Source: Escherichia phage WPEC4
Strand: one strand, 5' to 3'
Sequence record: PV682947.1
Length of the DNA stretch: 64,000 bases
This document shows, piece after piece, positions 35-19,846 of the stretch. The notes under the pieces were generated by a model. It had not been told where the DNA came from. It made no database searches and was given only the letters and a program-made list of their open reading frames with translations. The translations under genes were made by a program, and so were the position numbers. Numbering within the stretch: position 1 is the stretch's first letter; each line of letters opens with the position of its first letter.

Positions 35-64
35 TTGACAAACGTATCCTTCATATGTTAGGAT
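35..64 (+). promoter_or_regulatory. sigma70-like promoter: TTGACA 35-40, extended -10 TG-n-TAGGAT 56-64, with dyad ACGTATCC/GGATACGT at 42-49 and 61-68
   Basis: Hexamers read directly; upstream motif AACTATTGACAA recurs at about 617, 1587 and 13953. Confidence 0.5.
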
Positions 65-273
65 ACGTTTATCAAGTGTGGTAACAGGGTCGTTGACTTT
101 TGTTAAGAGGGGCTTGCACTGCGGTAGTGTTAGAGACTACTTCTTCAGAGGTTAGCTACCAAAGAGGAAAAGGAATAGTCTCGGCTCAAGAACTTTTACG
201 CTGAAAGTTGGGCTTGGTCTTAGAGAATGTAGCGGTTCTCTACAATCGTCAGCGTCTCTGTTACCACATTTAT

Positions 274-348
274 GGCCCTGTAGCTCAATGGGAGAGCTGT
301 CGGCTCATAACCGATAGGTAGCTGGATCGAAACCAGCCAGGGCCACCA
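274..348 (+). tRNA. tRNA-Met (anticodon CAT)
   Basis: Manual cloverleaf: acceptor GGCCCTG/CAGGGCC, D-arm GCTC..GAGC, anticodon loop CTCATAA, T-arm GCTGG-ATCGAAA-CCAGC, encoded CCA. Confidence 0.8.
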
Positions 349-350
349 AC

Positions 351-425
351 GTCTTTATGGTGTAATGGATAGCACAGGAGTCTTCTAAACTCTTAGTCAA
401 GGTTCGATTCCTTGTAAAGACACCA
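351..425 (+). tRNA. tRNA-Arg (anticodon TCT)
   Basis: Acceptor GTCTTTA/TAAAGAC, anticodon loop CTTCTAA, T-arm CAAGG-TTCGATT-CCTTG, encoded CCA. Confidence 0.8.
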
Positions 426-621
426 GAACATTTTAACATGAATTAGCTCAAGTGATTTGAACCCACTACTGATCATGGTGGCAGAGAATGAGGCAAGTAT
501 GTCAGACATTATAAACAAAGGCCACGGTTATATTAGAAGACATAAATGCTCGAAGAGCACCGTTCGTTGAGAACGGGGGTTGGTGGAGTCACCATTCATG
601 GTAAAATGTTTTAAAAAACTA

Positions 622-651
622 TTGACAACTAACATTATTTTATGTTAGATT
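622..651 (+). promoter_or_regulatory. sigma70-like promoter: TTGACA 622-627, TG-n-TAGATT 643-651, with dyad CTAACAT/ATGTTAG
   Basis: Same TTGACA-N18-TAGnnT architecture as the promoter at 35-64; lies just upstream of tRNA-Ser. Confidence 0.5.
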
Positions 652-659
652 ATAAGTAT

Positions 660-750
660 GGAAGGGCAAATCGACGTGGCGACGAAAACGGTCTTGAAAA
701 CCGCCGAGCTTGAAAGAGCCTTGGGAGTTCGACTCTCCCTCCTTCCGCCA
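660..750 (+). tRNA. tRNA-Ser (anticodon TGA), type II with long variable arm
   Basis: Anticodon arm AACGGTCTTGAAAACCGCC closely resembles E. coli tRNA-Ser(UGA) as recalled; T-arm GGGAG-TTCGACT-CTCCC; discriminator G; CCA. Confidence 0.7.
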
Positions 751-754
751 GATT

Positions 755-840
755 GGTAGATTGGTGAAATGGTAGCCACGACAGTTTGCTAAACTGTAGT
801 CGGAAACGGCGTGTAGGTTCGAGTCCTACATCTACCGCCA
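755..840 (+). tRNA. tRNA-Ser (anticodon GCT), type II
   Basis: Acceptor GGTAGAT/ATCTACC, anticodon loop TTGCTAA, long variable arm, T-arm GTAGG-TTCGAGT-CCTAC, discriminator G, CCA. Confidence 0.75.
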
Positions 841-970
841 AGTTCTTTTTAATATAGCTTACTTTAATAGAGTAAACTTTCGGCAGATGGCCTCCACCAT
901 CTTACCGATAACTCATAGTTAGTGGTGTGAACACTGGCTATTTTAAAAAGAATTTAAATATTAGTATTTA

Positions 971-18200: not shown

Positions 18201-18587
18201 GATGACTGGAAGAATAAAGACTTCGTGCAACAAATGATTGCATATCACGATGAAGCCCAGCTTGAAGTTTCTCGTAACCTTGTAGAATTCAAATGGTTTT
18301 CACCGGAATCATTAGGTTGGAAGAAAGTAGACGATCCTGAAGAACAAAAGAAAATTGATAAAGAATGCCTTGCTAAAGTCGAAGAATGGAAGCATAATAA
18401 GGAAAAAGAGACAGGGCAAATTTGGGCTAACATTCATGAATCTCCCAAAGGTGGATGGTTTACAGCCTATAGTCGGGCAGGTGAACTTGCCGCTTTAGCT
18501 GTTACCAAGGCTGGAGAATTTTACAATCTTAACGTTCAGCTTACTGCCGGATACGATGTGGGTAATTCCTGGGCGTCCTGTCACTAG
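15255..18587 (+). CDS. Family A DNA polymerase, T7 gp5-like, interrupted by an intein (1110 aa precursor)
   Basis: GTG start after AAGGAGG; exonuclease motif DIEANGL; motif A DFDSLEAKIESHY; GIDGRKVPTRSAHAILNSLFQSGG and AYHDEAQ align with my recollection of T7 gp5. Confidence 0.9.
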   Translation: MSKFTWDIEANGLLNNDTIDYLASPYRLKDTFQMHCIVLENHETGEIVAFHDGPKYIFDGRPYEESDGKYTYVLKEYVVQDYTHFQLKDFPDFINHEGYFKDKPEYLVEMAVAHNGINYDWLATKLFYGLDYSVKYNTWGKNKVKLIDSLILSKVLNPDRKIEGKSGHSLAALSRKAGGDVKIDFRKEIPEEDRFKTFAADMLYYCIYDNKANTSVYNYLMEEWGDYDKWEGPFELEQRVADIITRQEHRGFAFNMKQAEENLAFLDAEMERLRLLVEPILPPKPATKGYLKAFIPPKLQIKKNLEPTNHMINFAKKHDGHLEERDGDWWLVMLGKEWKLPVAADEPLCDPNIPATLNDTTHIKNWLVGLGWVPSEYKDKDLTLKSGTKIKKSEEELQKGIRAYVEQTLSSNFCQDRCDHLECTPETLERKIQERIAKGKGRGLKVLTNPCFTKGQEKEICPNLQALGEKFPYATQIVEYLTYKHRRNSILGGGADWEEDEEDQEYDKGFLAAVRADGRIPTPAATCDAATSRMKHRSVANIPRVTSLFGWEMRNLFGVEVPKYFQIGYDFDSLEAKIESHYCVPMDAQALTRKGWVGYHDLKEGDEILGYNAETGLKEWTKVKGKVFYKNSKTFEIKGKSHTYRATADHRWYVNTRSKGNTYVPKVRTTAELCTGDNIICNAPFNMEQDQVNSLTSVQQGKWDVPWVERVVNMSHAERVAFLEGFLIADGYWHEHKQKPVWRWAQNPGELFEAALTASYLVHGGNISVAFNTKEQKVKVATLTNRSHIPVQSLTIEEWGVEDVWCPQTELGTWVMRQKDCITITGNCWRYEPEPHEYCNALLLEKPNDVHTMMAKRITETIGRKFERSPAKSVKYGITYGAQADKVAKTIGSDKFTGQLVFDAFWEAAFPLARLKERLNDFWVKTGKQYVLGIDGRKVPTRSAHAILNSLFQSGGVICAKRAMVIYDDMIEEEGLSVDFFKDDWKNKDFVQQMIAYHDEAQLEVSRNLVEFKWFSPESLGWKKVDDPEEQKKIDKECLAKVEEWKHNKEKETGQIWANIHESPKGGWFTAYSRAGELAALAVTKAGEFYNLNVQLTAGYDVGNSWASCH
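17001..17735 (+). mobile_element. Intein (245 aa) in DNA polymerase motif A, with a LAGLIDADG-type motif
   Basis: Begins with Cys (CVPMD...), block-B-like TADH, motif AFLEGFLIADGYW, ends ...CITITGN followed by +1 Cys; the flanks join into a T7-like motif A. Confidence 0.75.
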
Positions 18588-18604
18588 TTAACTCATTGTT
18601 TTAT

Positions 18605-18626
18605 AAGGGGCTTCGGCCCCTTTATA
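18605..18626 (+). terminator. Intrinsic terminator after the DNA polymerase gene
   Basis: AGGGGC-TTCG-GCCCCT hairpin followed by TTTAT. Confidence 0.65.
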
Positions 18627-18635
18627 GGAGGAGAT

Positions 18636-18827
18636 ATGCATTACGATTTAGATTGTCTTGGTATGCCTTACCTACCAGATGAATTTGAAGGTGAAGAAGA
18701 ACGTGAATGGGACGATGGGGATATCCGTTGTTGGTCTTGTGGTAAAGATATGTCTTATGAACAACATATGCACAATGATGGTTTCTGCATACATTGTTAT
18801 AATGAAATTGATCTGGAGGAAGATTAA
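18636..18827 (+). CDS. small zinc-ribbon protein (63 aa)
   Basis: AGGAGGAGAT ribosome-binding site; CxxC...CxxC (CWSC, CIHC). Confidence 0.5.
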   Translation: MHYDLDCLGMPYLPDEFEGEEEREWDDGDIRCWSCGKDMSYEQHMHNDGFCIHCYNEIDLEED

Positions 18828-18994
18828 TGGGAAATGGTATCATGATTTGCTATAAAATTGTGCGTATTGTCGGAGACGAAATTACCACTCGGTATTTTAT
18901 GATAGAGTCTCAAGCCGATGAGGTTTACAATGACTGGCTTGAAAAAGGTGGATACGATTTTGTATCTAAAGAAACTTTCCGTTTAGAAGTATAA
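18827..18994 (+). CDS. hypothetical small protein (55 aa)
   Basis: Hand-translated; TAATG overlap; the competing track ORF 18658..18855 looks spurious. Confidence 0.35.
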   Translation: MGNGIMICYKIVRIVGDEITTRYFMIESQADEVYNDWLEKGGYDFVSKETFRLEV

Positions 18995-19004
18995 GGAGAA
19001 AACA

Positions 19005-19223
19005 ATGCGTAAATTAGTGAGCTTTAATGTTTCAATTCTTGTTGATGAACAAAATGAAGATGTTATTAAAGGTCTTGCAAATAAGATTGCAGGTGGAATG
19101 ACGGAAGCTGAAGTGTGGGAAGAATGTGCTCGACTTTATGAGGAAGGTGTTATTGAGGTCTTGGGGGATGAGATTAATATGGACGATGTTGTAAAAGTAA
19201 CTGTGGAGCGTATCAATGACTAA
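19005..19223 (+). CDS. hypothetical protein (72 aa)
   Basis: AAGGAGAAAACA ribosome-binding site. Confidence 0.5.
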   Translation: MRKLVSFNVSILVDEQNEDVIKGLANKIAGGMTEAEVWEECARLYEEGVIEVLGDEINMDDVVKVTVERIND

Positions 19224-19809
19224 ATCAAAACAAATCAATATTGCCAAAGAAATTCTTACCGTATTAAAGATCGCTGATCCTAATTCTGTCTTGGCTGGCG
19301 GTGCTGTTCGTGATTGGCGTATTCTTGATATTGCTGGACGTGATCTGGATTTCTATACATCCCTTCCTGCACATCGGACTGAAGAACAAATACAAGGATT
19401 AATTGCATCTGCTTTAATGGGAACCAATATTCGTAAACTAGGAAACAAAGAGGCTTCTGACAATTATGAAGGTGTTACTGGTCTTAAACACGTTTTTGAG
19501 TTTGAACGTGATGGTCAGCTTTGCAACCTTATGATTATGGAACCAAGCGTAATGACAACCTTTCTAAATGAGTTCGATCTGTCCATCTGCCAGGCTGCAT
19601 TTGATGGGAAGGATTGTTATTATTCTAAAGATTTTGAAACAACCTTGGAAACAGGGATCTGCTTCTTGCACAAAGACGTTAGAGAAGATGCCAAACATGT
19701 TATTAAAATTGCCACACGTTTCCCATATCTACGTTTTGTTAAAGAAGTGAAGGTTCCGCGTCCACCTCAAGTAGATACCAGATCGGAAGAAGATGATATT
19801 CCTTGGTAA
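19216..19809 (+). CDS. Nucleotidyltransferase resembling the head domain of CCA-adding enzyme/poly(A) polymerase (197 aa)
   Basis: LAGGAVRDWRILDIAGRDLDFYT compared with E. coli CCA enzyme VGGAVRD..DRD as recalled. Confidence 0.55.
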   Translation: MTKSKQINIAKEILTVLKIADPNSVLAGGAVRDWRILDIAGRDLDFYTSLPAHRTEEQIQGLIASALMGTNIRKLGNKEASDNYEGVTGLKHVFEFERDGQLCNLMIMEPSVMTTFLNEFDLSICQAAFDGKDCYYSKDFETTLETGICFLHKDVREDAKHVIKIATRFPYLRFVKEVKVPRPPQVDTRSEEDDIPW

Positions 19810-19816
19810 TTAAAGC

Positions 19817-19846
19817 TTGACAATATTAAACATTTTATGATAGGAT
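19817..19846 (+). promoter_or_regulatory. sigma70-like promoter: TTGACA 19817-19822, TG-n-TAGGAT 19838-19846
   Basis: Same TTGACA-N18-TAGGAT architecture as the promoter at 35-64. Confidence 0.55.

Follow-up and report, generated by a model that had tools for sequence, protein, structure and literature searches.

Introduction

The closest described counterparts of the elements considered here are the PeSL cassettes of the T4-like myoviruses RB49, phi1, PST and nt-1, in which a strong sigma-70-like promoter is joined to an AT-rich upstream region and a stem-loop (PMC2839356; PMC4122927). The stem-loop can lie between the promoter boxes, over the -35 or the -10, upstream of the promoter or just after the -10; its stem carries G-T pairs, and it serves as a terminator or attenuator of upstream transcription (PMC2839356; PMC4122927). 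In the related large myovirus rV5, 33 predicted sigma-70-like promoters, 11 of them with an extended -10, are distributed over all modules, and the authors of that study concluded that modification of the host RNA polymerase may be unnecessary (PMC3606486). Here we analyze promoter-like sites in a 64,000-nucleotide (nt) stretch of DNA from Escherichia phage WPEC4 (PV682947.1), referred to throughout as the window, in which a first-pass annotation had proposed a phage-specific promoter family at positions 35, 622, 1592 and 19817. The window belongs to a phAPEC8-like Escherichia coli myovirus (Phapecoctavirus, Stephanstirmvirinae), and its tRNA gene cluster occupies positions 1-2300.

We consider it probable that these sites are extended -10 promoters at which E. 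coli RNA polymerase carrying sigma-70 starts without being modified, and that they form composite elements of the PeSL type with the stem-loops that overlap them. As in the PeSL cassettes, a sigma-70-like promoter is found together with an AT-rich tract before the -35 and a stem-loop, the elements are intergenic, and the copies resemble each other.

Results

A small family of promoter-like sites around the tRNA cluster

The pattern TTGACA-N15-TGn-TAG(G/A)(A/T)T occurs three times in the window, at 35-64, 622-651 and 19817-19846, where 0.01 occurrences were expected, and none of 100 shuffled sequences reached three. The site at 1592 does not match this motif (TTGACA-N15-TGn-TAGRWT). Loosening the pattern adds a site at 59642, which has a 16-bp (base pair) spacer and is a member of another family (see below). 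Two additional members were recognized, one at 2357 by a simple sigma-70 weight-matrix scan, which is heuristic only, and one at 57516-57487 on the minus strand, which was read by eye. The resulting family (class A) is small: four of its sites are at the tRNA cluster, a fifth follows a nucleotidyltransferase gene and the sixth precedes the lysis/terminase gene string. All of its sites are non-coding and co-oriented with the downstream tRNAs or genes, and in 150 kb of the relative ASO2A the family pattern matches only the window's sites and one position within a gene.

The six sites are designated P1 to P6 in the order of their positions, and their transcription starts are predicted by counting 7 nt from the end of the -10. 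P1 (35-64, plus strand) has its -35 (TTGACA) at 35-40, an 18-bp spacer with TG at 56-57, and the -10 TAGGAT at 59-64, giving a predicted start at ~71. P2 (603-651, plus strand) begins with an A/T-rich, UP-like tract at 603-621, followed by the -35 TTGACA at 622-627, TG at 643-644 and the -10 TAGATT at 646-651; its predicted start at ~658 lies 1-3 nt ahead of the gene for tRNA-Ser(UGA) at 660. P3 (1588-1621, plus strand) has TTGACA at 1592-1597, an 18-bp spacer and the -10 TATAGT at 1616-1621, with a predicted start at ~1628, about 5 nt before the gene for tRNA-Gly at 1633. P4 (2357-2385, plus strand; TTGACT-N17-TGtTAAGAT) is upstream of a gene of 98 amino acids (aa) at 2407-2703, and P5 (19817-19846, plus strand; TTGACA-N18-TGaTAGGAT) ends 8 nt before the ATG (19855) of a 130-aa gene that is followed by an SSB-like gene. 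P6 (57487-57516, minus strand; TTGCAA-N18-TGaTAAGAT) precedes the gene that opens the lysis/terminase string, and its upstream flank is cut by a rearrangement junction at 57520/57521.

All six sites have a -35/-10 spacing within 16-18 bp, being TTGACA with N18 at P1, P2, P3 and P5, TTGACT with N17 at P4 and TTGCAA with N18 at P6. The four -10 hexamers found (TAGGAT, TAGATT, TATAGT and TAAGAT) retain T-12, A-11 and T-7, and A-rich tracts are present upstream of the -35. The TG one base before the -10 is present at P1, P2, P4, P5 and P6 and absent from P3, where a TG lies 3 nt too far upstream for an extended -10. The four promoters that the first-pass annotation had credited with an upstream TG and a TAGGAT or TAGATT -10 are thus reduced to three (35, 622 and 19817), as the site at 1592 has neither. 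Taken together, the elements fit host sigma-70 extended -10 promoters, so that a phage factor would not be needed to explain them, and the description of the family as phage-specific is not borne out: every element is standard for sigma-70 and no phage-specific recognition factor is required. A T4-like late motif (TATAAATA) was not found upstream of the late genes, and in ASO2A sigma-70-like promoters precede late genes too. Host tRNA and rRNA promoters under stringent control have a G+C-rich discriminator and a 16-bp spacer. The window's sites are unlike this type of promoter, having A/T-rich discriminators (ACGTTTA, ATAAGTA, AAAGAGG and AAAGTTT) and 17-18-bp spacers.

Beyond the core elements, the 12-mer AACTATTGACAA occurs at 30, 617 and 1587 (three found, 0.03 expected). 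The extended -35 context that had been attributed to all four promoters is therefore common to those at 35, 622 and 1592, but the one at 19817 shares TTGACAA only and lacks AACTA. It is possible, although we think it somewhat less than an even chance, that the AACTATTGACAA(C) context stems from cassettes of the tRNA array having recently been copied, or having undergone gene conversion with each other, and not from a need of recognition. The exact 12-mer is present at three sites in this lineage only; phiWec190 has it at P3 only, with AAGTATTGACAAG at P1 and GGTGTTGACAAT at P2, and in phi92 the sequence AAAACTA is one base further from the -35 and precedes partly different promoters. PeSL cassettes are known to recombine with one another (PMC2839356), and two of the four homology breakpoints between the window and ASO2A in the early region (59664 and 60491) fall inside promoter cassettes of the other family (59642 and 60441, respectively). 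However, the similarity between the tRNA-region sites does not extend past 12-13 nt, no direct repeat family was detected in 1-2800, and an A-rich tract next to the -35 also resembles the proximal subsite of an UP element, so that selection could equally explain the 12-mer.

Orthologous sites keep the promoter elements while their spacers diverge

We compared the window with phi92 and Nernie (Justusliebigvirus), phiWec190, phiWec188, the Klebsiella phages phi1_175008 and KP13-26, and IMG/VR contigs; the tRNA regions of the lineages furthest removed are no more than about 78% identical to that of the window. Orthologous sites keep the -35, the 18-bp spacing (17 bp at one P1 ortholog, TTGACA-N17-TGtTAAGAT in phiWec190/L007), usually the TGn, and a -10, while the sequence of the spacer diverges. 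In an alignment of five P2 sequences from three lineages the invariant blocks are AAAA.GTTTTAAAA, TTGACAA and TGTTAGATT, with a variable spacer between them; among eight P3 sequences they are TTGACAA and the -10 region. P4 orthologs were found in every relative examined. A pattern scan of IMG/VR for further P2 orthologs gained almost no new lineages. Because the -35, the spacing and the -10 are kept while the spacers diverge, this phylogenetic footprint makes chance or non-function a very unlikely explanation of the sites. Promoter-like sites of the type that host RNA polymerase reads are retained at orthologous positions in at least four divergent Stephanstirmvirinae lineages, in agreement with that part of the first-pass reading.

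The orthologs of P5 are TTGACA-N18-TGtTATTAT in phi92, TTGACA-N18-TGtTACTAT in KP13-26 and TTGACT-N18-TGaTAGGAT in phiWec188, i.e. the -10 hexamer varies (TAGGAT, TATTAT, TACTAT) between lineages that all retain the -35, the spacing of 18 bp and the TGn. This bears on the reading of P5, since the AGGA within its -10 (19841-19857 region) may double as the ribosome-binding site of a read-through mRNA. One could go further and regard TAGGAT at P5 as mainly a ribosome-binding site, its AGGA lying 9 nt before the ATG at 19855, with the likeness to a promoter being secondary. In support, the -10 ends so close to the ATG that RNA from the predicted start would be nearly leaderless, and phi92 and KP13-26, in which the hexamer differs, have a separate GAGGA between the -10 and the ATG. 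We nevertheless regard this as unlikely, because none of the four lineages has lost TTGAC(A/T), the 18-bp spacing or the TGn although the -10 has changed, which would not be expected of a mere ribosome-binding site. None of the genes near the sites resembles a sigma or anti-sigma factor. Pfam and PHROGs searches of the genes near P5 gave no link to a sigma, anti-sigma or tRNA-related gene, and the genes downstream of P4, P5 and the promoter at 13958 (described below) contain no Pfam domain, with PHROGs returning only 'unknown function', nucleotidyltransferase and an SSB-like tail.

A second class of cassettes in the early region

The first-pass annotation had contrasted the family with a near-consensus promoter at 13958 driving an isolated gene, and had taken this as a hint of distinct temporal classes. 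The promoter is indeed there (13958-13986, plus strand; TTGACA-N17-TATACT), between a primase/helicase gene and the open reading frame (ORF) at 14020-14451, and it is kept in ASO2A. However, the gene at 14020-14451 is not isolated, as the next ORF (14461-15255) follows after 9 nt with no terminator-like site between them, and 13958 is merely a good N17 promoter within the replication gene string. Two sequence classes do exist, but judged by their motifs the distinct class is made up of cassettes in the early region and not of the 13958 promoter. These class B cassettes lie on the plus strand at 57612, 58363, 58839, 59203, 59642, 60441, 60713 and 62223 (57.6-62.3 kb). Each comprises an A-rich tract, TTGACA, a 16-bp (occasionally 17-bp) spacer, TGn at some but not all sites, and TA(A/G/T)nAT, followed ~7 nt after the -10 by a conserved GTAGGGCGG...CCGCC hairpin, with which the transcript would begin. 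The annotation of ASO2A marks such sites as a promoter and then a 'terminator'. Class B is represented by 13 sites in 150 kb of ASO2A, and the Justusliebigvirus 'outra' has nine. The breakpoints inside two of the window's cassettes suggest that class B cassettes may have mediated gene shuffling; no homology breakpoint lies within class A cassettes.

It is conceivable that the two classes are also temporal ones, with N18 plus TGn marking tRNA and late-proximal promoters, N16 plus TGn and a downstream hairpin marking early promoters, and the timing set by a phage factor or by changes of DNA supercoiling that act on spacer length. The two groups differ in spacing: N18 is found at 5/6 class A and 0/13 class B sites in Phapecoctavirus (Fisher p = 5e-4) and at 4/6 and 0/9 in Justusliebigvirus (Fisher p = 0.011), although this is a post hoc test on sites that share descent and are thus not independent. 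In addition, the 18-bp spacing is held at orthologous sites even where the -10 hexamer changes. Against this, other intergenic N17 and N18 promoters are scattered across the early, replication and structural modules, no phage sigma factor, AsiA/MotA-like protein or other factor was identified, and no distinct late motif was found. We therefore think a temporal division quite unlikely. A related and bolder idea, to which we give little credence, is that spacer length together with hairpin position encodes promoter class in the Stephanstirmvirinae, with 16 bp for early, 17 for replication and 18 for tRNA and late-proximal promoters. Under such a code, and just as doubtfully, the hairpin would follow the -10 at early promoters, whereas at tRNA and late-proximal promoters the -35 or the spacer would lie inside it. 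It would also be DNA twist or read-through, and no phage sigma factor, that set timing or strength, a proposal we hold to be equally speculative.

The dyads as probable RNA hairpins

The inverted repeats that the first-pass annotation had noted over the spacers, and had suggested to be possible operators, do exist. P1 is enclosed by an inverted repeat at 35-75 (plus strand) with 16-nt arms at 35-50 and 60-75 that are 94% complementary, and folds at -19.6 kcal/mol (z -4.95). Its arms read AACGTATCCT/AGGATACGTT; the phiWec190 ortholog, with the arms AGCGTGTCTTA/TAAGATACGCT, differs by two compensatory changes and one G.U and still folds at -17.9 kcal/mol. At P2 the repeat CTAACAT (629-635)/ATGTTAG (642-648) on the plus strand covers the spacer and the -10; phi92 has a different hairpin at P2, enclosing the -35 instead. 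A third dyad, which had previously been missed, is the hairpin ACTATTG-ACAAC-CAATAGT at 1588-1606 (plus strand), around the -35 of P3.

In seven of eight P3 orthologs the -35 sits atop a 7-9-bp hairpin whose arms differ and whose loop is shifted, e.g. GCCTCTT-GACA-AAGGGGC in phi92, GCCCTTG-ACAA-CGAGGGC in L006 and a 9-bp stem in a Klebsiella phage, with folding energies of -6 to -12.9 kcal/mol across lineages. As the loop moves by 1-3 nt against the fixed -35 from one lineage to another, the stems are given per lineage. As a control, a stem of at least 7 bp around the -35 is present at only 4/137 TTGACA sites in ASO2A. A -35 placed in a hairpin is seen again at P2 (phiWec190 and phi92) and at P5, where phi92 has it and KP13-26 has the stem GGGGTT-GACA-AACCCC followed by GUUAUUUUG. 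The non-canonical pairs in these hairpins are G.T on the plus strand, and in most orthologs the plus strand folds better than the minus strand.

Because the arms covary, the half-sites are not conserved and the mismatches are G.T on the plus strand, the evidence points to hairpins that would form in plus-strand read-through RNA, not to protein operators. That the dyads are operators of a dimeric phage or host repressor shutting the promoters off is very improbable, for although they span the -35, spacer or -10, and a repressor bound there would obstruct RNA polymerase, the three share no common sequence and differ in register, both arms change between lineages with pairing kept (P1 in the window and phiWec190; P3 across six lineages), and G.T pairs are relevant to RNA and not to duplex DNA.

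The hairpins of P1 and P3 also lack the form of a canonical intrinsic terminator. Only 4 pairs of the 11-bp inner stem of P1 are G-C, and UAUCAAG comes after it, while the P3 hairpin is followed by UAAAAUG, i.e. the G+C-rich stem and U-run of an intrinsic terminator are not found. Reading the P3 hairpin, which is preceded by an A-run, as a minus-strand terminator was rejected because of the G.T pairs on the plus strand and the better plus-strand fold in most orthologs.

Predicted transcripts of the tRNA cluster

Between P1 and the genes for tRNA-Met and tRNA-Arg lies a putative, unannotated structured non-coding RNA of ~200 nt (66-273, plus strand), with a 16-bp closing helix, a minimum free energy of -76.8 kcal/mol (z -5.2) and compensatory change in 14/73 pairs in a four-sequence alignment. 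An intrinsic terminator is present at 2315-2333 on the plus strand (seven pairs, five of them G-C, then a T run) and is annotated as a terminator in ASO2A; no other credible terminator was found on the plus strand in 65-2315. With this single terminator, the transcripts from P1, P2 and P3 would be nested and would share a common 3' end. Rfam searches of 1-2800, at the gathering threshold and at E <= 1, returned tRNAs only; promoters, hairpins and the RNA at 66-273 all remained without a match.

We therefore propose the following scheme for the composite elements. Each promoter would be built from an A-rich tract, a -35 of TTGACA(A), an A/T-rich 18-bp spacer, TGn and a non-consensus -10 that keeps T-12, A-11 and T-7. 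P1, P2 and P3 would act as internal promoters of the phage tRNA cluster, P1 producing the ~200-nt structured RNA and then tRNA-Met and tRNA-Arg, P2 producing tRNA-Ser(UGA) and P3 producing tRNA-Gly, with all three transcripts ending at 2315-2333; P4, P5 and P6 would serve the neighboring protein genes. The stem-loops of P1-P3 would fold in plus-strand RNA reading through from upstream, and probably attenuate it, end it or mark it for processing.

Several observations weigh against this scheme. No transcriptomes, start-site studies or promoter studies were found in the literature on phAPEC8/phi92-like phages, and the annotators of ASO2A marked nine promoters, none of them in the tRNA cluster. 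Few independent lineages were at hand, so that the covariation comes from small numbers. Among the hairpins, the minus strand of P1 in the window folds slightly better than the plus strand (-21.2 versus -19.6 kcal/mol), the dyad at P2 folds only weakly (-7 kcal/mol, z -1.9) and phi92 does not retain it, and the P3 hairpin does not fold in the phiWec190 ortholog, i.e. its conservation is not universal. Finally, the P1 and P3 hairpins have no U-run on the plus strand and so are not canonical intrinsic terminators.

Other features of the tRNA cluster were noted. ARAGORN identified ten tRNAs; tRNA-Ser(UGA) (~660-746, plus strand) and tRNA-Tyr (971-1055, plus strand) were missed by ARAGORN and found by Rfam, the former as a sub-threshold match to tRNA-Sec, and both are annotated in ASO2A. 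The non-tRNA spacers at 841-970, 1707-1804 and 2200-2314 (plus strand) have 75-95% identity across genera, about as much as the tRNAs, and may encode further small RNAs.

Layout of the window

The window is identical (100%) to WPEC1 and WPEC6 across 2782-25000, and many other phages show 97-99% identity. In ordinary relatives such as ASO2A, a divergent junction is followed by the tRNA cluster and then by the lysis, terminase and structural genes. The window is colinear with no reference, and corresponds to ASO2A 60884-63752, the reverse complement of 63759-120707, and 437-6374. At the first of the two resulting junctions (window position 2782) the ATG of a TelA-like gene is lost, and the second (57520/57521) interrupts a small early ORF at a point 4 nt ahead of the -35 of P6. 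No homology flanks either junction, and both are absent from WPEC1, WPEC2 and WPEC6. They represent a real rearrangement or, more likely, a misassembly.

The DNA polymerase ORF (15255-18587, plus strand) contains an in-frame insert of ~730 bp at ~17011-17734, which ASO2A lacks; the products have 1110 aa in the window and 865 aa in ASO2A. The insert begins with CVPMDAQALT, includes LEGFLIADGY and ends with ITGN ahead of a Cys. It resembles an intein carrying a motif of the LAGLIDADG type, but has no match in Pfam or PHROGs.

Discussion

If the proposed scheme is correct, it shows how the widely used phAPEC8/phi92-like therapeutic coliphages express their tRNA set, i.e. from several strong, nested host-type promoters that are each fused to a hairpin, and it would extend the idea of a promoter/stem-loop cassette beyond the T4-like phages. 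Its practical value would lie in promoter positions that are missing from present records and in portable strong promoters for engineers. The understanding of transcription is unchanged by it, and a set of conserved host-type promoters joined to hairpins, although neat, is for the most part nothing unusual.

T4 and T5 likewise combine their tRNA genes with other small stable RNAs in regions that have several host-type promoters; the window's tRNA region has no sequence relationship to either. In comparison with E. coli extended -10 promoters that have UP-like elements, the window's sites are alike in TTGACA, in the TG at -15/-14, in T-12, A-11 and T-7, and in their A/T tracts, but differ in having an 18-bp spacer at 5/6 sites in place of the optimal 17 bp and G at positions 3-4 in TAGGAT. 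The phage rV5, a related large myovirus, has sigma-70-like promoters as the window does, but its analysis describes no tRNA-cluster promoters, overlapping hairpins or spacer-length groups (PMC3606486).

The PeSL cassettes of the T4-like myoviruses remain the nearest parallel (PMC2839356; PMC4122927), and from their motifs and predicted folds the class A sites appear to match the PeSL structural definition. The range of stem-loop placements is also PeSL-like, with the stem-loop over the -35 at P3, over the spacer or -10 at P1 and P2, and after the -10 in class B, and G-T pairs are present in the stems. There are, however, differences: the Stephanstirmvirinae are not T4-like, the class A sites lie in the tRNA cluster and do not flank ORFans, and their stems are A/T-rich instead of polyG/polyC. 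The stem-loops of PeSL cassettes are terminators or attenuators of upstream transcription, and a similar role for those of the window would be the functional counterpart.

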